From: a bacterium
GTDB lineage: Bacteria > Fidelibacterota > Marinisomatia > Marinisomatales > UBA1611
Assembly (NCBI GenBank): GCA_018645565.1
Contig: JABGWJ010000134.1
Coordinates: 1 to 42,316, forward strand
Length of the DNA: 42,316 nucleotides
Reading direction: 5' to 3'
Positions 1 to 16,319 of the stretch are shown here, piece by piece. Position 1 is the first letter of the stretch. Every line of letters starts with the position of its first letter. A program made the translations under genes and the position numbers. The notes beneath the pieces were generated by a model that had not been told where the DNA came from, ran no database searches, and saw only the letters and a program-made list of their open reading frames with translations.

Positions 1-3000
1 AATAATAATGTTTTATGGGAAGAGTATACTGCTGGCTCAAATGGAAAATTTACGTTAGAGAACCGTATAATCTCTGGTAATTACAGAATTAAAGTATTTG
101 GCAACGGGCATGGTAATAATGGCGAATATGCTGGTAATGGTGGAATAAATATTACTATTAAAGATAAAGATGAGAGTCCAAAAATTAATTTATCAACAGA
201 TGGACTTAGGCCTATACTTGCTGCAAAGCGAGGAGTTCAAAGGGTTTTGGTAAGGTGGAAAGCACTTCCGCACGCAGAATCATACACTGTTTATAAAAAT
301 AATAAACCTGTAGCTGAGAAGATTAAAGAAAATAAATATATTGATAATGTTGCCCCTGGGAAATTTTATGAATACCATGTAAGAGCATGGGATTTGTATG
401 ATTTAGAGGGTCCTGAATCTAATAAAGAAAAGCAAAAATCATCATATCAGTTTCCAACTTTAAAGCCTAGCATTAAAATGGGAGCCCTAAAATCTGAAGG
501 TAGTGGGCGAATTGTTACGCTTGAATGGATTGCAATTCCAAACGTGGAAAAGTATGCTATTTACAGAGACAGTGTTTTAATATCAAAACAAGAAGAATTA
601 ACTTACATCGATTCTTTAGAATGGGGTAAAGAATACAAATTTAGTATTAATTCTATTGATCCAGATAATGATGAAGGTGCAATCTCTGAGGATGTTCTTG
701 TTGCTACTCACCCTGAAGTTTTAACGCCTGAATTGACAGCTTTAGGAAATGTTAATGCTGTAGATTTAAAATGGACTGATTTAAGTCCTGTTGCTACGTT
801 TTATAAAGTATTTCGCAACGGAAGTTATCTTGGAGATTTTGATAATCCATCTTTTTCTGATAACGTTGCTCCAGGAAAAGAATATTGTTATTCAATTTCC
901 GCAGCAGATCAATATGGTACTGAGGGTGAACAATCAACTACTGAATGTGGAAAGGGTCAGTTTGCTCATCCTTCAAATTTTTCCGCTGAAGTAATGCGTA
1001 ATACCGTTCATTTTAAATGGAAATCTGTTGAGGGGGTAAGTGGTTATCATCTTTACAGGAATGGTGAACTCATCCTTACAACTCAAGATTTCGCTTATTT
1101 AGATGAAAATTTAGAATATGATAAAGATTTTCAGTACGATATTGCTTCATATGATCAAGATGGAGACGATGGACCTATAGTGAGCGTAAAAGTACGCACC
1201 CACGAAGAAGTAACTAGTCCAATGATGAGCGGTGCTGCAGATTTAAAGCAAGTTACTTTGACTTGGAATCAACTACCATTGCGTATTGACCATGTATACA
1301 AAGTCTATAGGGATGGACTCCTTCTTGCTGACTTAACAGATACCTTTTATGTTGACATCGTAGATCCAGGGCAATATTACTGCTATAAAATAACGGCTAA
1401 AGACTCTTATGGTACAGAAGGTCCAGCTTCGAATGAAGAATGCTATAAAGTTCTAGTAAATTACCCAAAAGGCCTCACTCTAACAGGGGATGTTAAAAGA
1501 GTCTTGTTTAGATGGAAGGAGATGTTAGGAGCTGTTCAATATAATATTTATTCTCATGATAAAGATAACGGCGAAACAACTTTTATGACTAAAACAACAA
1601 GTAGTTATTACATTCATAAAGGGCTAGAGTTTGACACAGAGTATTGTTACAAAATGTCATCCTTAGATTCCGACGGAGATGAAGGTCCATTATCTCCAGT
1701 AATGTGTGGATGGGTCATGCCTCCTCCTCATTTAACTTTAATTGAAAAGTTTTTTGTAGAGCAATCTGATAACCAAATCTTAGATGGAAAAGAGGATGGT
1801 TTAATTGTCATTAAAATAGTAAACGATGGAAGAAGTCCAGCTAGAGAACTAAAACCATATTTAGAACCATTAAATTTTTCAAATACACCCTCCTTGATTA
1901 TTGATACTGTTGCGACTATTCCTGTCCTTGGAGTTGGTGATTCCATTACAATTAATTTCCCAATTTCAGCAAAATTAAAAATTGAATCTGGTGATAGAAA
2001 TTTTAACATAAGAATTAATGAATATGCAGGCATGGATTTAGATCCAGAACTCATATCTTTCCCCACATTGGCAGTTGTACCGCCGAATCTTGTAATAGCT
2101 GATTTCGCTATTGACAATGAATTTGGACATCACTACATACCAAAAAATGAAACAACTACACTCACTGTTAGATTTCAAAATTTATCAATTGGAAAAACGG
2201 ATACTGCTGTTTTAGCTTTTAGAAGAGGAGAGGGTTTTAAAAATGATTTAGATGAGATAAAGACTTTTGGCTTGGTCCCTGGTGGAGCATGGTTTGATTA
2301 TAGTTTTGAACTGTTAGCAAAAGAAGATCGGTTCACAATCTATTTTGATACATATGATTATTTTGATGTAAGAAAAACAATTCCTATTCATCTTGAAACT
2401 TTAAAACATTACAAGGGTAAAGACGATTTAAAAGCTGTCGATATTGCCATTAATGACTTTTTATCTCCTGGTCAAAAGTCAAAAGACCATCGCTTGTTGT
2501 TAGACCTTCCTGATGCTAATATGAATAGAGATATGATAGGTGTCGTGATTGGGAATAAAAATTTTTGGACTGAAAAAATTCCAGGCAATCAGTCGAGTGA
2601 AGAAGATGTCAAAATTGTAAGGCAGTATTACAATAAACTTTTTGGAATGAAAAATCACCAGATGGTGCCTTCTCAATTTTGGCTTTTTGAAAATGGAGTC
2701 ACGATCAATAACTTTAATGAAATTTTTAACCCAAATCTCGGATTTATTAGAAATAAGATTGAATCAGTAGTAGAATATTCAAACCTCGATACAATTGATT
2801 TAATGTTATACTATTCAGGAGAAGGAACTACTATCGCAGGTGAAAAATGTATTATTCCTTATGATGCTGATGAAAATAAAATTAACTCATTTTTTAAGAT
2901 AAAAGATTTATACTTAATGCTCAAAGAAATTAATAAAATTGATAATATCGGAGATATATTTGTTTTTATGGATGTTGATTTTAATAACTCGGGTTTTAAA

Positions 3001-3375
3001 CAAAACTTTAAAACTGCTGATCTAGATAATCCAAAAAAGAAAAAGAAAAAGAAAAAGAAAAAAGGAGAAGAGCCCAAACTGCCCTTTCCAATGGAGTTAA
3101 TACCCCCCCAGGGTATTACAACTTTTTACGCTGCAAATACTACAGAAAAATCTTATGATCATCCTGATGCAAAAAATGGTATATTTACTTACTATATGTT
3201 AAAAGGTCTTCGAGGTGATGCTGACAATGGTGACAAGGTAATTACCGTTGGTGAATTACATAATTATATACGTAAAAATGTTCTTGATACCACAAAAAAC
3301 CTCTACTCTAGCTTACCTCAAACACCTCAACTATTTACTGAGAATCCTGATAGAGTATTGTTGCGACTACCATAA
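1..3375 (+). CDS. Secreted FN3-repeat / paired beta-sandwich / caspase-fold (peptidase C14-like, dyad-less) protein, 5'-truncated by the window edge
   Basis: Frame 1 has no stop from base 1 to the TTG at 247 used by the ORF track, so the gene starts upstream of the window. It has at least six ~85-aa FN3-like repeats (W...Y-x-[VI]-[YF]-[RK]-[ND]-G ... Y-C-Y ... D-x-x-G-x-E-G). Two CARDB-like beta-sandwich modules follow (track aa ~495-725). The C-terminal domain has caspase-family hallmarks: IGVVIGNKNFW, LYYSGEG, FVFMDVDF, NGIFTYYMLKGLRGDADNGDKVITVGELHNYI, QTPQLF. Stop is TAA. Confidence 0.85.
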   Translation, partial: NNNVLWEEYTAGSNGKFTLENRIISGNYRIKVFGNGHGNNGEYAGNGGINITIKDKDESPKINLSTDGLRPILAAKRGVQRVLVRWKALPHAESYTVYKNNKPVAEKIKENKYIDNVAPGKFYEYHVRAWDLYDLEGPESNKEKQKSSYQFPTLKPSIKMGALKSEGSGRIVTLEWIAIPNVEKYAIYRDSVLISKQEELTYIDSLEWGKEYKFSINSIDPDNDEGAISEDVLVATHPEVLTPELTALGNVNAVDLKWTDLSPVATFYKVFRNGSYLGDFDNPSFSDNVAPGKEYCYSISAADQYGTEGEQSTTECGKGQFAHPSNFSAEVMRNTVHFKWKSVEGVSGYHLYRNGELILTTQDFAYLDENLEYDKDFQYDIASYDQDGDDGPIVSVKVRTHEEVTSPMMSGAADLKQVTLTWNQLPLRIDHVYKVYRDGLLLADLTDTFYVDIVDPGQYYCYKITAKDSYGTEGPASNEECYKVLVNYPKGLTLTGDVKRVLFRWKEMLGAVQYNIYSHDKDNGETTFMTKTTSSYYIHKGLEFDTEYCYKMSSLDSDGDEGPLSPVMCGWVMPPPHLTLIEKFFVEQSDNQILDGKEDGLIVIKIVNDGRSPARELKPYLEPLNFSNTPSLIIDTVATIPVLGVGDSITINFPISAKLKIESGDRNFNIRINEYAGMDLDPELISFPTLAVVPPNLVIADFAIDNEFGHHYIPKNETTTLTVRFQNLSIGKTDTAVLAFRRGEGFKNDLDEIKTFGLVPGGAWFDYSFELLAKEDRFTIYFDTYDYFDVRKTIPIHLETLKHYKGKDDLKAVDIAINDFLSPGQKSKDHRLLLDLPDANMNRDMIGVVIGNKNFWTEKIPGNQSSEEDVKIVRQYYNKLFGMKNHQMVPSQFWLFENGVTINNFNEIFNPNLGFIRNKIESVVEYSNLDTIDLMLYYSGEGTTIAGEKCIIPYDADENKINSFFKIKDLYLMLKEINKIDNIGDIFVFMDVDFNNSGFKQNFKTADLDNPKKKKKKKKKKGEEPKLPFPMELIPPQGITTFYAANTTEKSYDHPDAKNGIFTYYMLKGLRGDADNGDKVITVGELHNYIRKNVLDTTKNLYSSLPQTPQLFTENPDRVLLRLP
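3034..3063 (+). repeat. (AAAAAG)4-AAAAAA simple sequence repeat encoding a Lys10 tract
   Basis: Read directly: cca aaa aag aaa aag aaa aag aaa aag aaa aaa gga, in frame with the 1..3375 CDS (NPKKKKKKKKKKGEEP). Confidence 0.95.
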
Positions 3376-3433
3376 AGTATATTTATATATGGTATTAAAA
3401 TCATAAAGATTTTTTAGCTGGGTTTTGAATACA

Positions 3434-6382
3434 ATGAAATTTCTTCTATTTTTACTATTCATTATTAATATTGGTTTTGCAAAGACTGTTTCAATATCAG
3501 GCAGTATATTTAATAATGAAGCCAAACCATCTCGTAAAGCTGAAGTAGAACTTCTAAATATTTTTGATGAGGTTGTATATGTTGTGAAGACAAATCGAAA
3601 AGGAAGATTTGAGATGCTGGACGTTAACCCAGATTACTACTATCTCAATGTGAATCATCCGAAAGATGGTTCAGTAAGAATTAAAATTAACCCAAGAACA
3701 GAAAGAAATCGTGACCTTATTTTAAGATTATCTCTTCAAAAAGATAAATCTGATGTATTGGTTTACACTTATTCTAATGTAAAACCTATTTTGAAAGATC
3801 CAGTATTAAGGATTAAAGACTTGGTCTCAAATGGTGATGAAAAGTCAATCACTTTAAATTGGAAAAAGTTAAATCAGGCTGTTAAATATAAAATAATTCG
3901 AAATGGTAATGATCTTTTTGAAACATATGGAAATGCATTCATTGATTCTTCCTTATTACCTGGAGTTAAGTATTGCTATAATGTTATAGCAATAGGAAAA
4001 TATAATTTGAGAGGAGTAGAAAGCGAGTCTTCTTGCAATAGTTCTCTTACAATGGCGCCAAAAAATATTTTAGGCGCTGTTAATGAAAATAATATAACTT
4101 TAAAATGGGACAAGGTTAATGGCGCTCAAGAATATATTGTTAAACGAAATGGTCTCAATGTCGGTTTGTCTGATTTAGAGATTTTTAACGATAGTGATTT
4201 GGAATATTCTAGAAAATATTTTTATTCCATTACTTCTTTAAGCTCGATTGGAGTTGAGGGGCTTACATCAGCTCCATTTGAAATAACAACCAGAGCTTAT
4301 GTTGAGCCACCAGCATTATCATCTATTATTCAGCAAACTTCCATTAAGCTAATATGGAATGAGGTAGAATTAGCAGTGAGTTATAACTTATATAGAGATG
4401 GTGGATTAATCGGTAATATAATTGGTAATTCTTACGAAGATAATTGTTATCCAGGGGAAACACATTGTTATCAAATAACAAGCATTGATAAATACAATGT
4501 TGAGAGCGTATTGTCCGGTAAACATTGCTCAAAATTAAATTTAAAATCCCCAACTAGTTTAAACGTAATAGGTGGTATAAAATCTAATCGTTTGAGCTGG
4601 GCAGGAGTTCAAGGTGCATTTGAATATTTGATATTCAAGAGCATTGGGCAAGATTCAACTCTATATCTTAATAAAACAAAAAACACTTCTTTCTTGGATA
4701 ATGATTTAGGGTATAATGAAGATCATTGTTATGTTGTTCAAGGATATGACTCAGAAGGTGATAAGAGTGGTTTTTCAAACATCGTTTGTGGCACAACAAA
4801 TAATCCGCCACTATTAAAAATAAAGAATTTCAAGCTTATTGATGATTCTCAAAACAGTATTCTCGAATCTGAAGAAAATGGTAAGTTGAGGTTTGCTATA
4901 TTAAATGAGGGAGGTAGTCCCTCAAAAAACATAGTTGTAAAAATTGAAAACAATTCATTTGGGAACAGTTTTCTCCAATATGATTCTTTAAAATTGATTG
5001 AGGCAATAAATGTCGACGAAGCTAAATATATTGATTTTATTGTTAAGGCTGATTTAAAAGTAAAAACTGGCGATCTAAAATTTCAAATATTCGCTTTAGA
5101 TGAAAATGGTTTTAAAAATGATAAACCATTTGAATTTATCATTAATACAAAGGCGGTTGAGCAGCCAAATATAATTTTAGCAGACTATTCAATTGAAAAC
5201 AGTTTTGGTACTAATTACATTCCAAAAAATGAAATTGTTAATCTTACACTTAGAATTCAAAATGTGGGTTTAGGGCTTACAGAAAAAGTTGATTTTATGC
5301 TTATTGAGAACCATACTTTTTCAACAGAAGACTTCACAGGATTAATACAAATCAAAAAATTAAATCCTGGAGATTATCAAGACTTAGATATTGGTATAAA
5401 AAGTGAAAAAGACCAGTTTGCAATAAAGTTTAAAACAGTTGATTATCTAGATAATGAAACAGTTCATCAAGTAGATTTAGAGCTAATGAATCATTATAGA
5501 TCAAAGAAAAGTTTAATTAGTCAAGAAATTGGTGCTGTAAATAGCAATCCTTATCCAATAAAAGTTGGTGAGGTAGATGTAGAAAAAAATATTCCAATTG
5601 GAAAAAGAAATGTTAATAATATGGCTATTATACTATCGATTGATGACTACGAAGATACTGATTTAAACATAGCAAAATATTCTGGGCGAGATGGACAAAT
5701 TTTTAGGCTGTATATGCAAAATTTATTTGGAATGGACGATTATCAGCTCTATCCATCAAAAATATGGCAGATGGAGAACGGACCATCTAAGAGTGATTTT
5801 CGCAAAGTATTTGACCCTCATCAAGGTGTAATACGTAATAGAGTGATATCTTCAAGTAAATATTCAGACGTTAATTTTGTAGATATTAATGTTTTCTATT
5901 CTGGATTGGGAGTATGGTTGAATAATAAACCTTATATAATTCCGCAAGATGGTAAAAAAATTGATCCGCTTTCTTACGTAAGTATTGAAGAATTATTAAA
6001 TAGTTTATCATTGTTATCGGTTTTGAAAAACATTAGATCAATTACTGTTTACTTAGACGTTAAATATATCAACTATTTGGAGGCCTCGAAGAATTATCAA
6101 TATCCAGAATTATCAAAAAAAATATCTGTGTTATTATCTTCATCTCCAGGCGAAAATTCTCAAGAAAGTGACGATATGAAACATAGTATCTTTTCGTACT
6201 TTTTGTTTAAAGGTCTAAAAGGCGATGCAATGGGAGAAGATAACATTCTTGAATTAGGAGAACTCGCAGAATATTTATTTAGAAAAATACCGGATTATTC
6301 AGTAAACCTTAAGGAAGGTTTTTTACAAAACTCTGAATTTATCGGTTCAGATTTAAAAAGAGTCTTAATAGATTTAAGATAA
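3434..6382 (+). CDS. Secreted CarboxypepD_reg-like / FN3-repeat / paired beta-sandwich / caspase-fold (dyad-less) protein, paralog of the upstream gene
   Basis: ATG at 3434 gives a classic signal peptide (MKFLLFLLFIINIGFA-KT); the track's TTG at 3425 is an alternative start. The N-terminal region looks like a carboxypeptidase-regulatory domain (GSIFNNEAKPSRKAEVELLN...TNRKGRFEM). Four FN3-like repeats and two beta-sandwich modules are colinear with the upstream protein (PNIILADYSIENSFGTNYIPKNE vs PNLVIADFAIDNEFGHHYIPKNE). The C-terminal caspase-like domain shows MAIILSIDDY, VFYSGLG, VYLDVKY, HSIFSYFLFKGLKGDAMGEDNILELGELAEYL. Confidence 0.85.
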   Translation: MKFLLFLLFIINIGFAKTVSISGSIFNNEAKPSRKAEVELLNIFDEVVYVVKTNRKGRFEMLDVNPDYYYLNVNHPKDGSVRIKINPRTERNRDLILRLSLQKDKSDVLVYTYSNVKPILKDPVLRIKDLVSNGDEKSITLNWKKLNQAVKYKIIRNGNDLFETYGNAFIDSSLLPGVKYCYNVIAIGKYNLRGVESESSCNSSLTMAPKNILGAVNENNITLKWDKVNGAQEYIVKRNGLNVGLSDLEIFNDSDLEYSRKYFYSITSLSSIGVEGLTSAPFEITTRAYVEPPALSSIIQQTSIKLIWNEVELAVSYNLYRDGGLIGNIIGNSYEDNCYPGETHCYQITSIDKYNVESVLSGKHCSKLNLKSPTSLNVIGGIKSNRLSWAGVQGAFEYLIFKSIGQDSTLYLNKTKNTSFLDNDLGYNEDHCYVVQGYDSEGDKSGFSNIVCGTTNNPPLLKIKNFKLIDDSQNSILESEENGKLRFAILNEGGSPSKNIVVKIENNSFGNSFLQYDSLKLIEAINVDEAKYIDFIVKADLKVKTGDLKFQIFALDENGFKNDKPFEFIINTKAVEQPNIILADYSIENSFGTNYIPKNEIVNLTLRIQNVGLGLTEKVDFMLIENHTFSTEDFTGLIQIKKLNPGDYQDLDIGIKSEKDQFAIKFKTVDYLDNETVHQVDLELMNHYRSKKSLISQEIGAVNSNPYPIKVGEVDVEKNIPIGKRNVNNMAIILSIDDYEDTDLNIAKYSGRDGQIFRLYMQNLFGMDDYQLYPSKIWQMENGPSKSDFRKVFDPHQGVIRNRVISSSKYSDVNFVDINVFYSGLGVWLNNKPYIIPQDGKKIDPLSYVSIEELLNSLSLLSVLKNIRSITVYLDVKYINYLEASKNYQYPELSKKISVLLSSSPGENSQESDDMKHSIFSYFLFKGLKGDAMGEDNILELGELAEYLFRKIPDYSVNLKEGFLQNSEFIGSDLKRVLIDLR

Positions 6383-6445
6383 TATGATTTCACTACATAT
6401 AAGATATGTGGACAAGTATATTGTAAAATTTATATATTTATATAG

Positions 6446-6961
6446 ATGAATAGAGGATTTGCTATATTTCTCATTGTTTTAGTAGGCTGTGGCTTATTTG
6501 GTTGGAGAGAGTATGAACGCCAAATGAGAGAAAAAGTGTACAAGAATAGAATTAAATTAAAACTTGCTCAGCAACAACAAAAACAAGATCAATTAGAAGA
6601 ATTAGAAGGAATTGAAAAAGAGGAAAAAACAAAATTTAAAGTACAAATTCCTCATGATGGTAAACCCGAAACAAATACCTATCCAATGATTCTTGATGCC
6701 ACGAGTTCTTTTGACCCGGACCAAGGTGACCGAATAAGGTATGGATGGAAACAGTTGAGTGGTAATAAAATTCGATTAAGACCAAATTCTAGTTCTGGTA
6801 TTGTTTCATTTGAAGGCACGCCTGGAGAATACACTTTTGAACTGACTGTTTCCGATAATTATGGCATGGCTACAGTTATTACTAAAACAGTCAAGATTGA
6901 GAAAGAACCTAATCAAGCTCCAATAGTAGATTTAGAGATTAGGCAAGGAGTCACCGATTAA
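6446..6961 (+). CDS. Lipoprotein with Gln/Glu-rich coiled-coil linker and PKD-like (K319L-type) Ig domain
   Basis: Lipobox FLIVLVGC at the N-terminus. Charged linker KLAQQQQKQDQLEELEGIEKEEK. PKD-type pattern ILDATSSFDPDQGDRIRYGWKQLSGN...GEYTFELTVSDNYG...V.I. Confidence 0.7.
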   Translation: MNRGFAIFLIVLVGCGLFGWREYERQMREKVYKNRIKLKLAQQQQKQDQLEELEGIEKEEKTKFKVQIPHDGKPETNTYPMILDATSSFDPDQGDRIRYGWKQLSGNKIRLRPNSSSGIVSFEGTPGEYTFELTVSDNYGMATVITKTVKIEKEPNQAPIVDLEIRQGVTD

Positions 6962-7027: not shown

Positions 7028-7981
7028 TTGAAAAATAGTTACTATTCCCTTGGCATTGACATTGGAGGTACAAACACTGTATTTGGTGCTATATCACACG
7101 ATGGTCTTATATTAAAGAAAGATTCAATTTTGACAAATGCAGATCAAAATCCTGTCCATTTATTTGATAAAATTTTTGAAAGAAATAAGGTTTGGACAAA
7201 AGAACTTGATAATCGATACTTCTTTAAAAACATAGGCATTGGTGTTCCTAATGGTAACTATTTCACAGGCATGGTTAAAGATCCACCAAACTTAGGTCAG
7301 AAATGGCAAAATTTAGATTTAGTTAAGTTTGTAAAAAAATATTATGATATCCCTGTAAAAATTACAAATGACGCAAATGCTGCAGCCTTGGGAGAAAAAT
7401 CTTTTGGAGTTGCAAAAGAAATGAAAAATGCTGTAGTTGTTACTCTTGGTACTGGTTTAGGTAGCGGATTAATTATTGAAGGTAAGGTGTTTTACGGTCA
7501 TGATGGTTTTGCTGGGGAATTAGGTCATATTATCATTGACCCGAAAGGTCGTATTTGTGAGTGTGGAAGGCAAGGATGTTTGGAAATGTATGTTTCTGCG
7601 AAGGGGTTAAAACACACGATTGATGATTATTTATCTCGCTATCCAAACGATAAAACATTATTAAATCTGCAAGTAAATAATTTTGATGGAAAAAAGATGG
7701 ATGAAGCATTTGACGCTGGAGTAAATATAATTCAAGAAATCTATGAGTTTACGGGTAATATACTCGGCCAAGGTCTTGCTCAAGCTTCCACAATTCTTTC
7801 TCCTGAAGCGTTTATATTTTATGGAGGATTAAGTAATGCAAAACATCGAATACTTAAATTTGCAAAACAGTCAATGGATGCTAATCTATTAAGCTTTCAA
7901 AAAAATAATATAAAAATACTTTTATCTGAATTACCTGATGGTGAGGCAGGCATCATTGGTGCTTCTTGTTTACATCAATAA
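7028..7981 (+). CDS. ROK family sugar kinase (glucokinase-like)
   Basis: N-terminal ATP-binding LGIDIGGTN, DANAAALGE, and the ROK zinc motif GHIIIDPKGRICECGRQGCLE. TTG start; no in-frame ATG upstream. Confidence 0.85.
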   Translation: MKNSYYSLGIDIGGTNTVFGAISHDGLILKKDSILTNADQNPVHLFDKIFERNKVWTKELDNRYFFKNIGIGVPNGNYFTGMVKDPPNLGQKWQNLDLVKFVKKYYDIPVKITNDANAAALGEKSFGVAKEMKNAVVVTLGTGLGSGLIIEGKVFYGHDGFAGELGHIIIDPKGRICECGRQGCLEMYVSAKGLKHTIDDYLSRYPNDKTLLNLQVNNFDGKKMDEAFDAGVNIIQEIYEFTGNILGQGLAQASTILSPEAFIFYGGLSNAKHRILKFAKQSMDANLLSFQKNNIKILLSELPDGEAGIIGASCLHQ

Positions 7982-8001: not shown

Positions 8002-10083
8002 TTACTGAATATCCCCATTAGGGTCTGTTTTTAAATGTAAGATTTTACTTATTCCATTTAAGCTAGTTTCCCCAGTTACTATATATCCGTTATCTTTCGT
8101 TTGATTAATACTTTTAAAAACGTCTACGCTTTCACTACCATACAGTTTTTCCCAAAGTTGATTACCCTGAGCATCATAACAAGCCAACCAGCCTTGATAA
8201 TTATTATTGTTTAGATTTTTTCCAACAACAATATAATTTCCCATGTGATTTTCAATCATATCTAATGCGAAATTATTTCCAGGTATTGATGTTAAAAAGT
8301 TTTGTTCACCATTAGTGTTTGTATTAATAATCCAAGAATTACCACTTTCTTGGTTATTATTATCAGACGAATATCCACAAAAAGTATAGCTTCCATCAGA
8401 TGAATGAATTAATCTTTTTGGATAATCATATATGTCCAAATCCCAAGTTTTTGTCCAAAGTGTATCACCGTTGCTAGATATATTGGTGTCGAATTGTGAT
8501 AATAAAATATTTGATGGAGCGTTAGAAGAGGATTGAGCTAATGATGCAAGAATTACGTAACCATTATCTACTTCAATTATAGATTTCCCATTTTCTATAG
8601 TTCTTTGTGATTGTGGGGCAATTGAAATGTTATACTGATTGTCAATATTACCTAATTGATTAATTTCTAAAATTAATATATCTGGGTGTTGTGCATGATA
8701 CTGCCCAACGATAATATATCCATTTTCAGATGATAATATTATGTCGTTAACCTTATCAAGACCATACGCAAGATTCTCTCCTTCTGAATCGTACCCAATG
8801 ATTGAATTCCATAGTTGAGTACCATCTTGCATCGTTTTTGTTATTCTTATATCAGTATCTTGATTATTGTTAACTATTGTTGATACAAAAACATATCCAT
8901 CATTATCCTGTGTCTCAATTATTTTTACAGGCGTCTCGTCTTGGCTATAATTGTAATAGGTAGATGAAGTTAATATTCCATACCTATTAACACTTTTTAA
9001 CACAATATCACTATTATCCTTTGCAATGATTCTATAATCTTCAGCAGTTGTTTGGATGCCATAGAAGCCGCCAATCGATTCAGCATCGGAACCATAACTT
9101 TGTAAAAATGTAAAGTATATTGGTGTAGCTGATTGCATATTGCTAAATACCTCATATTCCCAATCATCAATTATCGAAACCATAAAGTAATAGGTCGTCC
9201 CATAATCATTTTCAATAAACAAATAGCTTGTATCTTGGCTACTATACGAAGTGTAAATAGCTACTTTATCACTCATGCTAGCATCTAGAGATCTGTAAAG
9301 TTTATAGCTCTTAAAATCTGATGATTGATAGCCTGACCATTTTATTGTGAGCTCATTACCAAAAGAGTCGATCGAATCTAATGAAACTGATTGAGGTATA
9401 GGTCTTACAGTATTTGACATATAACCACCTTTTGTACTCTGATTAAGAGTATCATAAACAATTATTCTGAAATAATTACTTACATGTGGATCAAAGTCAT
9501 CGATAGAATAACTAGAAACAGATTTAATAAAGACACTATCAATAAGAGTATTATTTGAAGTATCATTAATTCCAGAATATAGTTCATATTTTAAGAAATC
9601 TGAATCAGGTGACTCATTCCAAAATACTTGCATTGATTCTTCATCATATATAATTGATGTGATATTGATGGGTAATGGTTTTGGGTCTAAAGAAGATATA
9701 AAAACACTGCTTTTTGAGGAATAATTAAATGAGTCTGAAACAGTTATGTAGAAATAGTTTAGAATCAAAGGATCTACATCTTCTAAAAAATAAGTTATGC
9801 TTTTTACATCGTTGGTGCTAAAGATGAGTGAATAGTCACTTTCATTTGCTACTGTTGAGTGATAAAGGTCATACTGATTAAAATCTGTAGCATTTGATTC
9901 TTCCCAAGAAATATCAAATCCAGCATTATTAAATACTACGGATTCAATCTCAATTGTATCTGGAATAGATAAAGTATTATCAATAGTATAGTCAACGGGA
10001 GGACTCTCAGTACAATTATCATCACAATCACAAATACTTACCGATAGTGAGACTGGCCCATCCGGAAGTTCGTTAGTATTCAA
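8002..10083 (-). CDS. Cell-surface protein: three FN3-like repeats plus C-terminal beta-propeller-like repeats (body of an interrupted lipoprotein gene)
   Basis: Three repeats carry W-x-[EG]-S-x-x-S-D-F-x-x-Y-x-L-Y. The C-terminal half has six units of the type [DN]-G-[YS]-[IV]-[IV/F]-x-G ... G-x-x-L-W (SBBP / PQQ-like propeller pattern). The ORF as tracked has no signal peptide; see the next feature. Confidence 0.75.
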   Translation of the reverse strand: MNTNELPDGPVSLSVSICDCDDNCTESPPVDYTIDNTLSIPDTIEIESVVFNNAGFDISWEESNATDFNQYDLYHSTVANESDYSLIFSTNDVKSITYFLEDVDPLILNYFYITVSDSFNYSSKSSVFISSLDPKPLPINITSIIYDEESMQVFWNESPDSDFLKYELYSGINDTSNNTLIDSVFIKSVSSYSIDDFDPHVSNYFRIIVYDTLNQSTKGGYMSNTVRPIPQSVSLDSIDSFGNELTIKWSGYQSSDFKSYKLYRSLDASMSDKVAIYTSYSSQDTSYLFIENDYGTTYYFMVSIIDDWEYEVFSNMQSATPIYFTFLQSYGSDAESIGGFYGIQTTAEDYRIIAKDNSDIVLKSVNRYGILTSSTYYNYSQDETPVKIIETQDNDGYVFVSTIVNNNQDTDIRITKTMQDGTQLWNSIIGYDSEGENLAYGLDKVNDIILSSENGYIIVGQYHAQHPDILILEINQLGNIDNQYNISIAPQSQRTIENGKSIIEVDNGYVILASLAQSSSNAPSNILLSQFDTNISSNGDTLWTKTWDLDIYDYPKRLIHSSDGSYTFCGYSSDNNNQESGNSWIINTNTNGEQNFLTSIPGNNFALDMIENHMGNYIVVGKNLNNNNYQGWLACYDAQGNQLWEKLYGSESVDVFKSINQTKDNGYIVTGETSLNGISKILHLKTDPNGDIQ

Positions 10084-10359
10084 GCTTATTTTAACTGGTT
10101 CATTGTTGATATTTCCTAATATCTCGCTTAAAGGTATATCTATTTTTAAATCATTAATATTTATTTCAACGCCGCATATACCATCAGGATCACTGGCATC
10201 AATACCTAATGTTACAATTTCATTACATGTTGCCCCATCCTGGGGGAATGTTATTACTCAGTAACCGGGTTTATCTTCAATACGCCATTTACAAGAATGC
10301 AAGAAAGTAAGAGCGAGCATTAATACACTTAGTTTTATTATTTGAATTTTTAGAATCAT
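10084..10359 (-). other. In-frame 5' extension of the 8002..10083 gene: lipoprotein signal peptide ORF (ATG 10359) ended by TGA at 10258..10260, then 58 further open in-frame codons
   Basis: Hand translation of the minus strand gives MILKIQIIKLSVLMLALTFLHSCKWRIEDKPGY-TGA-VITFPQDGATCNEIVTLGIDASDPDG...KISL(TTG 10083)NTNELPDG. The offsets 10359-10083=276 and 10260-10083=177 are both multiples of 3. The ATG lies 5 nt after the upstream OMP gene stop (10365..10367). Confidence 0.65.
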
Positions 10360-10364
10360 ATTAA

Positions 10365-11768
10365 TTATTTAAATGTTTTATTAACTTGGAAACCAAATCT
10401 TAATTTTTGATCATGATCGTCAATGCCAATATCCTCAGCAATTGCTGTTCTATGTAAATGATGTAAATTTGAAATAGATAAATCAATTTCTATTGAATTA
10501 ATAGAATACTGAATTCCCGTCTTAAAGCCAGTTTTAACTCCAGATGAAAGTTTTTTTTCTGTGATTTGGTTCGATAAATTACCATAAAACTGAATATTGT
10601 CTCTATAAAACCAATGCAACCCTGATTGGGCAAACCAAATATCCCACGGGTAGCCTTTAGGCTTTAATTTTGTATCAACTAAGTTTACATGAATAAAAGT
10701 AGGAGCTAATGAAAATATTATGTTTTGTTTTGATTTATATTCAAAAATAATTTGATTTAAAAAACTGAGTTTATCGTAGTCATCAAAAATTACAGGTTTG
10801 CCAGGATGCGTGCTGATTACAGATTCATAAATAATATTTATCGGATAGTTTAAATTTTTAATTAATCTATTTAAATAATTTGTTCTAAAAGAAAGGTCAG
10901 ATGTGTTTAAAAAATTGCTATTTGAAATTTCAATAGTTAAAAAGTCTTTTATACCATATCCTAGTGTAAGTCTTGATTGCTGACTAATTGTTGAACCAAA
11001 TCTATTTTCTAGTTGAAGCTTGACTACATTCTCAGGCAAAAGTAGTTTGGAATCTGTGTCAATCTGTCGAGCCTCTTTATTATCTTCAGCCTTCTTTTTT
11101 GTTCTTTTTTTAACCTTATATATAGCTGACATATTGAAAGTATTATTTTTATAATCAAGAGAATCTATTAATGTTTTTTTCACATCTGTCATTCCTAAAA
11201 AGTAAGAGGCTCTGAATCCAAAATTATTATTTAGCATATAGTCTGCGCCAATGTGGAAACCAACATCAATATCAAAATCTTTGGGCTTAAGCTTAAGTTC
11301 ATCTGACTGGCTACTATTATAGTCTGTAAACTTTAACTTTGTAAGTGAAATTCCTCCTAGGGAGCTACCAAATTGTAAACCCATAAAAGAATTAATCTTG
11401 CTAGTATGTGATATCGGGTAGTAGATATGAGCAGATAAATAATTAAAAACCTCATAGCCGTCGATATTAATTTTGTAATCTACACCACCAATATTTAGTA
11501 GTGTATTGTCCTCTAATTTAGAACCTCTTTGAAGGTAACTAGCCCCAGCAATAAATCGACTAATTGGATATTCAAAGCCAATGTTAAACCCACTTCGAGA
11601 GTTTATATTGATACGATCATTAATAGTGTTATCATTGTATTTAATTTGTGAAGAATTAACCCCACCAAAGATCGTCAAATTTCTCTGTGCGTAAAGAGAC
11701 GATACTAAAAGAATGGTTATAATATTTGATTTTACTAGATTGAAAAAAAAGCCCAAGATTTTTATCAT
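10365..11768 (-). CDS. Outer-membrane beta-barrel protein with two modules (OMP_b-brl-type porin-like module + DUF5777-like module) joined by a Lys-rich linker
   Basis: Signal peptide MIKILGFFFNLVKSNIITILLVSSLYA-QR. Module 1 (aa ~27-218) has alternating beta-strand patterning typical of small OM barrels and ends ...FNMSAIYKV. The linker is KKRTKKKAEDNKEARQ. Module 2 (aa ~245-467) has an ENRFG...RLTLGYGIKDFLTIEISNS start and a C-terminal LRFGFQVNKTF aromatic beta-signal. Confidence 0.75.
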   Translation of the reverse strand: MIKILGFFFNLVKSNIITILLVSSLYAQRNLTIFGGVNSSQIKYNDNTINDRININSRSGFNIGFEYPISRFIAGASYLQRGSKLEDNTLLNIGGVDYKINIDGYEVFNYLSAHIYYPISHTSKINSFMGLQFGSSLGGISLTKLKFTDYNSSQSDELKLKPKDFDIDVGFHIGADYMLNNNFGFRASYFLGMTDVKKTLIDSLDYKNNTFNMSAIYKVKKRTKKKAEDNKEARQIDTDSKLLLPENVVKLQLENRFGSTISQQSRLTLGYGIKDFLTIEISNSNFLNTSDLSFRTNYLNRLIKNLNYPINIIYESVISTHPGKPVIFDDYDKLSFLNQIIFEYKSKQNIIFSLAPTFIHVNLVDTKLKPKGYPWDIWFAQSGLHWFYRDNIQFYGNLSNQITEKKLSSGVKTGFKTGIQYSINSIEIDLSISNLHHLHRTAIAEDIGIDDHDQKLRFGFQVNKTFK

Positions 11769-11791
11769 AGTTTTAGGTAAAATTGTTAATG

Positions 11792-11865
11792 TAGCGGAGG
11801 AGGGATTCGAACCCCCGACACCCGGATTATGATTCCGATGCTCTAACCAACTGAGCTACTCCGCC
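11792..11865 (-). tRNA. tRNA with CAT anticodon (elongator tRNA-Met; lysidine-modified tRNA-Ile2 not excluded)
   Basis: The minus strand reads GGCGGAG TA GCTC AGTTGGTTA GAGC A TCGGA ATCATAA TCCGG GTGTC GGGGG TTCGAAT CCCTC CTCCGCT A. This folds as a 74-nt cloverleaf with anticodon loop AT-CAT-AA. It lacks the initiator features: no C1xA72 mismatch and no triple G-C in the anticodon stem. Confidence 0.85.
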
Positions 11866-13346: not shown

Positions 13347-16319
13347 CTAGATTCCAGAGGAATCTTCTTCGTCCATTATCTCTATCGTTTCTGGTTTAGG
13401 AATTATTACCTTTCCTGTTCCAGATAGTCCATCTATAATAGAGCGGAATGGCTCTTTAAATTGATACCAGCTAATATAATTTTTCTCTTCTTTAGGATGA
13501 TTTTTTTCTAGCCATTTTGAATTTAGAAAATCATTTTTATTTTTGTGGTCAATAGTTAAATAGCCAATATGAAGGCTAATAATATTTTGGAAAAAATGAC
13601 TACCAAATGATGGGTCAACTGGAAAATCTTGATGTCCTAGCTCTAAAATCATTTTTGTATTTGATATTTGTTGCCAATTTATTGGTACGCCCAACCATGG
13701 GTCTGAAGAACCCCACCTACCAGGGCCAACAAGAATATAAGGCCTGTTTTTTTCCATTTTATTATTAAAAAATTCTATTTCTTTAGCTATATCAAGCGAT
13801 TTTGAAGGATCGTACTTATCGGGAGATAAGTATAATAAATCTTTTATTTGGTTCGTCGAACCATTTCCTAATGTTATGTGACTAGATGCAAAAATATCTC
13901 TTTTTCTGAAGCTTTCTTCGTCAATAGCCTTATTTGTTGATATCAGCATGGGTTTTATTTGTAATAAGTAAAATTCAGAAGGTTCATTTTTTCGCATATT
14001 TACAGCAAACTCTATTTCAACTGGGCATCCGAGAGCTTGTTTCCCAAGTATAAGTAATTCATTTAGTATCTCACATAAAGGTATAATCTTCCAATCAAGA
14101 ATTGGAGAAAAATTAACTACCCTTGTTCCCTTATAAGATAAAGAATTTCTAAGAATGTTATCATCTGAAGTGATAACTCCTCCTAGCCAGTCTAATGACT
14201 TGTCTATTTCAGCTTTTGAAAGGTTAAGAAGCTTCAAGTCATTTTTTAATTTAAAATTGGCGCCATCCATTTCGAGTGAATAAAAACTTGATTGGGAATT
14301 TACTAAGGTTGATTTTATTGTTGAAAACTGAGGTTTGATGGCAGGGTATTTTGGAGAGATGCCAAGGCATTTTCCGCCGTCTACAATAGTTTTACCAAAA
14401 CCAAGCGCTAAATAGCATACTCCTTCATCTCTCTTCATATATGAAACGGGATAAAAATTTATACTCTTTAATACGCCACTAAATGTTGGGTAAAATCTCC
14501 CCCCAGCGTATTCTTGCCCAGCAATTTCCATTAAAATCACTGCCATTTTTTCTTCTTCTGTTCGATGTGCACTATTTGCAAAATATGATTTTGATTCAAT
14601 ATAAAATATTGATGCGAAAACTAATTTTATTGCATCAATTAATTGATTTATACGGTCTTTAAATATTGCTTGGTTATTTGGTAACATAAATGTTGAATAT
14701 GCCCCAGATAGAGGTTGGTATTGTGAGTCTTCTAACAGACTAGAGGACCTGACGGCTAGAGGATAATTACAATTTTTTAAAAATGCTTCTACCTTAAGTG
14801 TTAGCTCCATAGACAACCGGCTTTTCAAAAACATTGTCTCAACATCTTTATTATTATTAGCCTTTAAGGCATTATCCCAAAGTTTATTATCTTTCATAAA
14901 ACGATCAAATTCTTCTGTGCCGATTATTGCTGTCTTTGGAATTTTTACATTTATGTTTTTGAATTTATTATTTATGCCTGACTGAATTATCATATCTTTC
15001 GCAAATGCTAAACCGCGTGCCTTACCACCTAAAGACCCTCCGCACATTTTATAGAACCTAGAACTTTTACCATTTTCAGGAGAAAAGTCAGATACTTCAC
15101 CAAACTTATGTTGTTGCTTTAAATTATTGATTTCTTCAATAATCATGGCTCTTATATCTTCTTTGTTAGAAAATTTTTGAACATTAATCTTTCTAAGTTG
15201 TGTTGCTAAATCAAAATTGGATCTAGCAGCAACCCAATTTGAAAAGTGGTTGCTTTTACCATGTAAAATAATGGTTGCTATTGGCACTGTTTTTATGCCT
15301 TCAATTAGATCTTCAATGTTCGTTGCTTTTAGTAATCCATTACCTTGATTATCCTTAAAAATAAAATCACCAAATCCAAAATTGATTAGCATGAAATTTC
15401 TTAAATCATTTAAAAGTGTGTTAGACTCTTTATGTAAAAAATCAGTTCCTAACTCTTTCGCTAATTTTCTATTAGAATTATCTGTTGATTGTAGCATTAT
15501 CGGCATCGACGGATGCTTTTCTCTGATAGATTTTGCAAATCTAGCTCCAGCTTTTGAGTCTTTTTTTCCATTATTCAAAAATTTAACATCTGATATTATT
15601 CCAACAATATTATCGCCATATTTATTCGAAAATTTTTCAGCAGTTTCAAAATTTGGTGTAAGTAATACTTTGATTCTTCCTCTTAAGTGCATTGATTTAT
15701 AAGTAGAACTAAAAGTTTTTTTCATAAGGGTTTTTGTAAGAGAAACTATCTCCCGATAAATAAGTGGAAGCAGTATTGAATACATTCGAGGGGAGTCTTC
15801 AATAAGAATTATTGCGCGCACATTACCTTGAATAATATCTTTTTCAGCATTTTTCCTATCTTCAACATATTTAATGATTGCTGGAAAAACGGAAGCGTCA
15901 CCTGACCATATAAAGATTCTGTTAATTGAACTCGGTGAAATTCGTGGAGTGAATTGTTTTATTTCTGTTTCATCAAAAGCTAGTAAGATTACTGGCATAT
16001 TCGGATATTTCTTTTTTATAGACTTGCCAAGTGAAATCGGATCAGTATCTTCAATTCTTAGCATAACAATTACTAAATCAAAATTATTTTTTGATAAATC
16101 GTTCATTGCTGAAGCTGCCGTAGAGGATCTAGTCACTCTAGGAGCATAATTAAAATTCATCCCGATGTATTCTGTCATAATTTGTTCAGTCAATCCGCCA
16201 TCCTCTTCAAGTATAAAAGCATCATACGGGCTAGCGACTAATAGAATTTCATGAACTCTGTGTACCATCAGCTCATTAAAATTATCGCTATGACTAATAT
16301 TGAAAGAGTTTTCTTTCAA
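13347..16319 (-). CDS. Pseudo-receiver + receiver (REC) + PEP/pyruvate-binding (PPDK_N ATP-grasp) domain protein of unknown function
   Basis: REC-like 1 is aa ~23-125 (HEILLVASPYD..., DLVIVMLRI). REC 2 is aa ~168-300 (AIILIEDSP, GIISDVKF, PIMLQS, FLHKES). PPDK_N-type motifs are CGGSLGGKARGLAF and ...PVEIEFAVN...FYLLQIKPM. The conserved C-terminal module has GPGRWGSSDPWLGVPINW. TTG start at 16319; an alternative ATG is at 16268. Confidence 0.8.
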   Translation of the reverse strand: MKENSFNISHSDNFNELMVHRVHEILLVASPYDAFILEEDGGLTEQIMTEYIGMNFNYAPRVTRSSTAASAMNDLSKNNFDLVIVMLRIEDTDPISLGKSIKKKYPNMPVILLAFDETEIKQFTPRISPSSINRIFIWSGDASVFPAIIKYVEDRKNAEKDIIQGNVRAIILIEDSPRMYSILLPLIYREIVSLTKTLMKKTFSSTYKSMHLRGRIKVLLTPNFETAEKFSNKYGDNIVGIISDVKFLNNGKKDSKAGARFAKSIREKHPSMPIMLQSTDNSNRKLAKELGTDFLHKESNTLLNDLRNFMLINFGFGDFIFKDNQGNGLLKATNIEDLIEGIKTVPIATIILHGKSNHFSNWVAARSNFDLATQLRKINVQKFSNKEDIRAMIIEEINNLKQQHKFGEVSDFSPENGKSSRFYKMCGGSLGGKARGLAFAKDMIIQSGINNKFKNINVKIPKTAIIGTEEFDRFMKDNKLWDNALKANNNKDVETMFLKSRLSMELTLKVEAFLKNCNYPLAVRSSSLLEDSQYQPLSGAYSTFMLPNNQAIFKDRINQLIDAIKLVFASIFYIESKSYFANSAHRTEEEKMAVILMEIAGQEYAGGRFYPTFSGVLKSINFYPVSYMKRDEGVCYLALGFGKTIVDGGKCLGISPKYPAIKPQFSTIKSTLVNSQSSFYSLEMDGANFKLKNDLKLLNLSKAEIDKSLDWLGGVITSDDNILRNSLSYKGTRVVNFSPILDWKIIPLCEILNELLILGKQALGCPVEIEFAVNMRKNEPSEFYLLQIKPMLISTNKAIDEESFRKRDIFASSHITLGNGSTNQIKDLLYLSPDKYDPSKSLDIAKEIEFFNNKMEKNRPYILVGPGRWGSSDPWLGVPINWQQISNTKMILELGHQDFPVDPSFGSHFFQNIISLHIGYLTIDHKNKNDFLNSKWLEKNHPKEEKNYISWYQFKEPFRSIIDGLSGTGKVIIPKPETIEIMDEEDSSGI

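Follow-up and report, generated by a model that had tools for sequence, protein, structure and literature searches.

A conserved tandem pair of giant Marinimicrobia proteins with signal-peptide-like N-termini and a C-terminal caspase fold that lacks the catalytic dyad

Results

Genes A, B and C and the limits of the locus

We analysed a stretch of 42,316 nucleotides (nt) of Marinimicrobia DNA (contig JABGWJ010000134.1 of assembly GCA_018645565.1), hereafter the window. Two consecutive genes on the forward strand, A and B, lie at its left end and encode giant colinear paralogs with 29% identity over 910 aligned residues (E = 2e-120). They are followed by gene C, which codes for a small protein with a PKD domain, and by a gene for a ROK-family sugar kinase (Table 1). 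Both A and B end in a domain of the caspase fold from which the catalytic histidine and cysteine have been lost. The first-pass annotation of this DNA, made from the letters alone, had described a tandem of colinear paralogs here, and both this arrangement and the coordinates of its reading frames are confirmed.

The window opens inside gene A. An exact-protein look-up of B finds this contig in many metagenomes, there extended upstream by 10 kilobases. In this longer version (L001), which is identical to the window across the 300 nt compared at the left end (window 1-300), the full gene A occupies L001:5161-9942, and the window lacks only its first 1407 nt. Upstream of A are genes for DUF3228, DUF92 (opposite strand) and DUF350 proteins, a hypothetical gene, and genes for imidazolonepropionase and urocanase (hut). 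These are unrelated to A and B, hence the module starts at A, and the earlier expectation that the locus continues upstream does not hold beyond the missing part of this gene. The spacers measure 58 nt between A and B (49 nt with the TTG start of B), 63 nt between B and C and 66 nt between C and the ROK gene. No terminator-like sites were found in these three spacers; a promoter scan gave no enrichment over shuffled sequences and is not informative. Since the ROK gene is always the next one after C and no terminator precedes it, it is probably co-transcribed with A-C. The open frames comprise 982 and more than 1124 codons in DNA of 32% guanine-plus-cytosine (GC) content and have dozens of conserved orthologs, so chance is not an issue for A and B.

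Domain layout of A and B

From the N-terminus, full-length A consists of a signal peptide, a CarboxypepD_reg domain, four FN3 units, a further CarboxypepD_reg domain, six FN3 units, two CARDB-like modules and the pseudo-caspase domain. B follows the same plan with one CarboxypepD_reg domain and four FN3 units. These FN3 arrays, proposed in the first-pass annotation, are borne out by a repeat profile built from one B unit, which finds four units in B and ten in full-length A, six of them inside the window. Pfam recognises CarboxypepD_reg (63.9 bits, two stretches) and fn3 (42 bits) in full-length A; the corresponding matches in B are sub-threshold only.

The AlphaFold2 model of B residues 460-982 (57-sequence alignment, mean predicted local distance difference test score (pLDDT) 93) contains two all-beta sandwich modules followed by an alpha/beta domain. 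CARDB (PF07705) is matched in orthologs and in the active relatives described below, and the paired beta-sandwich of the earlier reading thus stands. In Foldseek searches the sandwich pair of B resembles tandem immunoglobulin-like (Ig-like) proteins such as RbmA and intimin D00-D0.

The C-terminal domain has a caspase fold

The C-terminal domain of A and B is a genuine clan-CD caspase fold, as had been assigned to it earlier. For A this is given by Pfam, where the domain passes Peptidase_C14 (PF00656) with 35.7 bits against a cut-off of 21.4. B has no Pfam Peptidase_C14 match of its own, and it is tied to the clan by profile search and, independently, by structure. A profile covering the C-terminal ~270-295 residues of both A-type and B-type proteins was searched exhaustively against 1.84 billion cluster representatives. 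This joint profile detects 21,959 clusters at E <= 1e-3, of which 148 reach E <= 1e-30, and the best matches outside Marinimicrobia, at 120-160 bits, cover the whole profile at their own C-terminus. A word-indexed homolog search with the A domain returned A fragments only; the active family is seen only in the exhaustive search.

In the Foldseek search of the Protein Data Bank (PDB) with the B model, whose C-terminal domain gives the best-ranked matches, the caspase domain of MALT1 is the first match overall (E = 3e-9, template-modelling (TM) score to target 0.62). It is followed by caspase-7 (TM 0.63-0.67), caspase-9 and CED-3, and the scores of MALT1, caspase-7 and caspase-9 together span 0.60-0.67. 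Sequence identity to these three proteins is only 12-16%. PDB sequence searches with the A domain alone, an A-ortholog profile and a mixed profile gave nothing significant; the weak MALT1 matches among them (E about 0.02-0.03), aligned at YYAGHG and LDMC, were used for the motif register only.

The best matches outside Marinimicrobia belong to an uncharacterised group of bacterial Peptidase_C14 proteins named 'caspase family protein' or 'Caspase domain', and organism names are almost absent from their clusters. They have a variable N-terminus (WD40 propellers or others), CARDB and a C-terminal Peptidase_C14 domain, and they share with A and B the tri-domain of two CARDB modules and a caspase domain end to end. 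Most full-length members start with a signal peptide, and one Marinimicrobia member exists. Export and a C-terminal caspase domain are therefore the norm for this clade and not, as the first-pass annotation implied, an unusual combination. Peculiar to A and B are the loss of the dyad, the arrays of FN3 and CarboxypepD_reg modules, in place of which the relatives have WD40, and the tandem pair. A and B also share derived features that are rare in the active relatives, notably a PS[QK]xW insertion.

The catalytic dyad is lost while the pocket is largely retained

Among the 152 aligned sequences of the top 150 matches, 137 have His and 135 have Cys at the dyad columns, within the motifs SGHG and DACFSG. 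The exported Peptidase_C14 relatives keep both motifs, whereas both residues are missing in A, B and every ortholog examined, just as had been noticed for the two copies in the window. The replacements in A are Glu and Asp. In B orthologs the His column carries Leu or Tyr, and the Cys column carries Lys, Arg or Thr, with Asp in two sequences. The SG that follows the Cys column and forms the oxyanion/turn motif is lost too, with NN in its place in A. The fold-defining residues of the active family are retained. Given the loss of the dyad, A and B are homologs of the family and not peptidases. As His and Cys are gone from both copies, a non-proteolytic role, which the first-pass annotation had already favoured, is the sensible reading.

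Two residues ahead of the Cys column, an Asp is found in A and B without exception; the Asp position of the RDA motif shows no variation in B and is occupied by Asp or Asn in A. We take these two positions, mapped by motif position and not by structure superposition, to correspond to Asp95 and Asp211 of TbMC2. In TbMC2 these residues make up the pocket for a basic residue, and known pseudo-orthocaspases keep the two pocket aspartates (PMC6426788).

A second feature of A is a lysine run. It lies at the position of the caspase p20/p10 intersubunit (processing) linker, the L2 loop. At this site every A ortholog has a stretch rich in Lys, about 5-12 residues long, which is absent from B. In the active relatives a conserved Arg is common in the same loop (column 168, 66%). 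The DNA under the run might recall slippery sequence; it is interrupted by its AAAAAG units, and phase variation is hence not suggested.

Signs of export and the nature of protein C

A, B and their orthologs have signal-peptide-like N-termini. Furthermore, 8 of the 9 cysteines of A and 6 of the 7 of B form pairs spaced exactly 20 residues apart inside FN3 units, and these pairs recur in distant orthologs. Together, the signal peptides and the Cys pairs indicate an oxidising, extracytoplasmic location for A and B.

The C-terminal sorting domains of the type IX secretion system (PF18962/TIGR04183 and PF13585/TIGR04131) gave no match in A, B or C at E <= 0.1, and A and B end at the last strand of the caspase fold. 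S-layer homology (SLH) domains, autotransporter domains, LPXTG motifs or other surface anchors were likewise not detected in A and B. Of the cell-surface, S-layer or adhesin-type apparatus proposed earlier, predicted export is thus retained; no outer-membrane or surface sorting signal was found for the surface part. A protein with a Por_Secre_tail is present in one Marinimicrobia locus.

Protein C had been annotated as a PKD lipoprotein. Its PKD domain is supported by a K319L-like Pfam match (33.8 bits, cut-off 27). The lipobox LVGC is present in the window strain and in L023, and its Cys is missing in three of five orthologs (L020, L022 and L026), so that lipidation is not a feature of the family. 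The hydrophobic segment and the FGW[RK]EY motif after it are conserved among the orthologs. On this pattern C is more likely a membrane-anchored (signal-anchor) PKD protein, perhaps lipidated in this sub-lineage only.

Conservation and gene order

B orthologs share 37-99% identity and are 980-1012 residues long, apart from one lineage with a form of 1096 residues. Among 25 of them the mean pairwise identity is highest in the two halves of the pseudo-caspase domain (0.56 and 0.54) and lies at 0.37-0.53 in the FN3, CARDB and CarboxypepD_reg units. In the deepest comparisons the pseudo-caspase domain of A is 48-54% identical, against 56-58% for the flanking DUF3228 protein and 43-51% for the ROK kinase. 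Conservation of this kind places the pseudo-caspase domain under purifying selection. Identity between A and B is about 27%, below that of every ortholog pair; the duplication thus predates the sampled radiation and the gene pair is ancient.

In a scan of GTDB genomes B was found in a Candidatus Marinimicrobia single-cell genome and in two metagenome-assembled genomes. A and B recur widely in metagenome assemblies, including Tara records. Members of the clusters go by 'hypothetical protein' [Candidatus Marinimicrobia / Neomarinimicrobiota bacterium] or by 'fibronectin type 3 domain-containing protein'. The order A-B-C-ROK is retained in 9 of 9 distinct Marinimicrobia lineages sampled, down to ~40% identity of B, and the co-occurrence of the paralog pair with the PKD gene, anticipated earlier, is thereby established for these lineages.

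Two irregularities were seen. One lineage (L021:7973-12620) has two genes for LPP20-like lipoproteins inserted between B and C, and between C and the ROK gene it has a CsgG/LpoB-like protein without an evident lipobox and a lipoprotein with a Kre9/Big_7 Ig domain. These accessory genes were considered as a core of the module and rejected, being lineage-specific and without homologs in the window or the other loci. In a pair of near-identical contigs gene A is a single open reading frame (ORF) of 1615 residues in one (L026:5100-9946) and two ORFs of 255 and 1253 residues in the other (L027:5099-9946); the split reflects an error of assembly or else a genuine disruption.

Table 1. Features of the window. 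Coordinates count from its first letter; + is the forward strand.
Feature	Coordinates	Strand	Remarks
Gene A, 3' 3375 nt	1..3375	+	Codes residues 470-1593 of a 1593-residue protein; 5'-truncated in the window
A, FN3-like repeats 5-10	211..1707	+	Three with two Cys exactly 20 residues apart, a probable disulfide
A, two CARDB-like beta-sandwich modules	1726..2463	+	Colinear with the B sandwiches; CARDB matches in relatives
A, pseudo-caspase (Peptidase_C14-fold) domain	2491..3372	+	Pfam score and profile alignment to active relatives
A, Glu (GAA) at the catalytic His column	2821..2823	+	SGEG for SGHG; invariant in A orthologs examined
A, Asp (GAT) at the catalytic Cys column	2977..2979	+	DVDFNN for DACFSG; invariant in A orthologs examined
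A, run of 10 lysines	3034..3063	+	(AAAAAG)n-like DNA; within an insertion that follows the Cys strand and precedes the next one
Gene B	3434..6382	+	982 residues; ATG start, alternative TTG at 3425
B, four FN3-like repeats	3806..4804	+	Three with the conserved Cys pair at a spacing of 20 residues
B, two CARDB-like beta-sandwich modules	4811..5503	+	AlphaFold2 model, pLDDT 93; Foldseek matches
B, pseudo-caspase domain	5576..6379	+	Best-conserved part of B
B, Leu at the His column	5906-5908	+	SGLG
B, Lys at the Cys column	6062-6064	+	DVKYIN
Gene C	6446..6961	+	171 residues; hydrophobic anchor at the N-terminus (6458-6508), charged linker, single K319L-like PKD domain (6686-6871)
ROK-family sugar kinase	7028..7981	+	Always the next gene after C
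Putative lipoprotein gene with in-frame TGA	8002..10359	-	Two ORFs in the same frame
693-residue ORF	8002..10083	-	
33-residue ORF	10258..10359	-	Lipoprotein-type signal peptide
In-frame TGA	10258..10260	-	Separates the two ORFs
467-residue outer-membrane beta-barrel protein	10365..11768	-	OMP_b-brl_2 and DUF5777
tRNA-Met	11791..11865		
990-residue protein	13347..16319	-	Weak receiver match and PPDK_N domain

Other genes of the window

The remainder of the window consists of core metabolism and repair genes, and no sign of a mobile or defence island was seen in it. A, B and C have no PADLOC match and their neighbours are housekeeping genes, so that an anti-phage reading of the module was rejected.

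Beyond the ROK gene, on the opposite strand, a lipoprotein-type signal peptide and a 693-residue ORF are separated by a single in-frame TGA. This TGA and its flanking peptides (WR[IV]ED[KQ]PGY before it and VITFPQDGATCNE after it) are conserved across four further lineages, among them a single-cell genome, at identities as low as 71%. A small hairpin (CCCC-AGGAU-GGGG) that does not vary lies 12-13 nt after the TGA, and a Big_7 Ig domain is encoded right after it (29.1 bits, cut-off 24.1). TGA ends 4 of the 32 genes of the window, hence the genetic code is standard. The in-frame TGA looks like a recoded UGA, possibly for selenocysteine, in a putative exported FN3/propeller-like lipoprotein. The gene of an outer-membrane beta-barrel protein adjoins this lipoprotein gene, and a tRNA-Met follows the barrel gene. 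Further along, the gene of the 990-residue protein, which has a weak N-terminal response-regulator receiver match and a PPDK_N domain (phosphoenolpyruvate-utilising, ATP-binding), keeps its position in several loci.

Discussion

Relation to known systems

A and B are a variant of the already known pseudo-orthocaspase theme. Catalytically dead caspase homologs are documented in bacteria (PMC6426788, PMC3501461), and some prokaryotic caspase homologs, 30 of 671 sequences, have been classed as extracellular (PMC3501461). Pseudo-orthocaspases (Klemencic et al. 2019, PMC6426788; for example Synechocystis SyOC, PMC7889975) are, like A and B, bacterial C14 homologs with a substituted His-Cys dyad, which retain the two pocket aspartates and the conserved fold. 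However, those described are mainly Tyr-Ser or Tyr-Asn variants from Cyanobacteria and Alphaproteobacteria (PMC6426788), while A has Glu/Asp, B has Leu or Tyr with Lys, Arg or Thr, and both belong to a different phylum. They also differ as giant, apparently exported multidomain proteins that form a conserved tandem pair.

MALT1 paracaspase and caspases-7 and -9, the best structural matches, share the caspase/hemoglobinase fold with the B domain. Unlike A and B, they are cytosolic and eukaryotic and have other partner domains, and death-fold recruitment domains are absent from A and B. Fibrillar adhesin-like proteins (Monzon et al. 2021, PMC8286594) are likewise exported and have long FN3/Ig-like tandem stalks, but in A and B neither a recognised anchor nor an adhesive tip domain was found, and their terminal domain is a dead protease. 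S-layer proteins are often anchored by SLH domains, which gave no match in A and B. Literature searches found no characterised system with the architecture of A and B, in agreement with the first-pass annotation and with the uninformative names of the clusters. As far as these searches reach, the substitution pattern, the giant FN3/CARDB layout, the tandem pair with its PKD partner, the oligo-Lys linker and the Marinimicrobia setting are undescribed.

Proposed role of the dead caspase domain

We tentatively suggest, as something quite possible, that the dead caspase domain serves as a peptide-docking and assembly module which joins A and B, with C as their tether. A and B would be Sec-exported, disulfide-stabilised envelope proteins of Marinimicrobia, and their C-terminal domain is a catalytically dead descendant of the exported CARDB-CARDB-caspase protease family. 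The ability to cleave has gone with His and Cys; the fold is kept, as are, in B, both aspartates of the Lys/Arg-binding S1 pocket. Domains of the caspase fold form dimers, and catalytically dead ones pair with partner proteins; the pseudo-caspase domains may in this manner pair A with B. A functional analogy is offered by cFLIP, whose dead caspase domain is able to act through pairing. The oligo-Lys loop of A, placed at the former processing linker, would be the likely ligand of the acidic pocket, and in A this pocket may be strengthened by the Glu and Asp at the old catalytic positions. FN3, CARDB and CarboxypepD_reg modules would form the stalk, and C, through its putative membrane anchor, would tether the complex to the envelope.

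Several observations weigh against this proposal or soften it. The residues that replace the dyad in B vary among orthologs, which argues that the replacements are not functional in themselves. The stand-alone model of the A domain is poor (9 sequences, pLDDT 50) and was not used. Between the caspase domains of A and B identity is 29%, whereas each reaches 33-34% with active relatives, and in a quick neighbour-joining tree the two do not come out as an exclusive clade; as the two are no closer to one another than to active relatives, catalysis may have been lost once or twice. The flanking housekeeping genes are syntenic as well, so the conserved order reflects in part a general stability of the chromosome and is a weaker sign of a functional link. 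Finally, with no surface or outer-membrane sorting signal found in A, B or C, the proteins may reside in the periplasm or at the surface.

A far bolder form of the same proposal, which we regard as improbable, is that A-B-C is an unrecognised, lineage-defining envelope structure of SAR406. In it the dead caspases would work as 'pseudo-zymogen' latches, where the acidified cleft of one subunit captures the oligo-Lys loop of its neighbour and so polymerises the FN3 stalks, and the active paralog may license this by cutting the loop.

Alternative explanations

A and B could instead be substrates, decoys or regulators of an exported, Lys/Arg-specific protease of the caspase family encoded elsewhere in the genome, as the first-pass annotation had proposed in part; we consider this unlikely, while taking it seriously. 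Either an active paralog would cut the oligo-Lys linker of A and thereby mature a pseudo-zymogen, or the dead domains would pair with the active one in the fashion of cFLIP and caspase-8. The support is circumstantial. The lysine run lies exactly where caspases and metacaspases undergo processing, and active relatives often have the conserved Arg in this loop. Moreover, an active protein (P0230, 725 residues, with signal peptide, coiled region, two CARDB modules, YYAGHG and LDACFSG) is colinear with the tri-domain of B over 98% of its length. On its contig (L025) IMPDH and HutH (histidine ammonia-lyase) fall in clusters named Candidatus Marinimicrobia, hence Marinimicrobia also encode an active exported paralog. 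But this contig has 37% GC against 32% for the window and was not placed in one genome with A and B, and the active gene is not linked to the A-B-C cluster in any locus. The active paralog lies directly downstream of genes for a Y1-transposase-like protein and a reverse transcriptase (RVT_1; L025:154-4517) and could be in a mobile or retroelement context.

Somewhat more doubtful is a passive coat or adhesin built from A and B at the surface, whether fibrillar, S-layer-like or binding particles or polysaccharides, in which the dead caspase is a structural cap without a ligand. The long arrays in which FN3, CARDB and transthyretin-like modules follow one another in tandem, the acidic isoelectric points of both proteins (5.5-5.7), their weak similarity to FN3-type modules of carbohydrate-active enzymes, the tightly conserved length of B and the wide occurrence in metagenomes would all suit such a coat. 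However, the surface anchors searched for were not detected, and for a passive cap one would expect neither the highest conservation of all domains nor the retention of pocket aspartates. That the domain still hydrolyses by unconventional residues is very improbable. The Glu and Asp of A are invariant and chemically reactive, but the replacements in B are variable and the oxyanion/turn motif is gone, and to our knowledge no clan-CD enzyme works without the Cys. Decaying relics without function would explain the lost catalytic residues; intact frames, orthologs of near-constant length across the whole range of identities and a dead domain that is the most conserved region effectively refute this reading, and we give it hardly any weight.

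Significance

Last, the Marinimicrobia (SAR406) are uncultured bacteria that abound in the ocean, and next to nothing is known of their cell envelope. A conserved pair of ~2,600 residues, encoded beside core metabolism genes in the sampled lineages, is likely a major component of this envelope. If the docking and assembly role is true, A and B would provide a clear example of a protease domain that has been converted to a non-catalytic extracellular module, and the pseudo-orthocaspase concept would extend beyond small proteins of Cyanobacteria and Alphaproteobacteria. The relatives of A and B point, in turn, to a large unstudied family of exported bacterial caspases.

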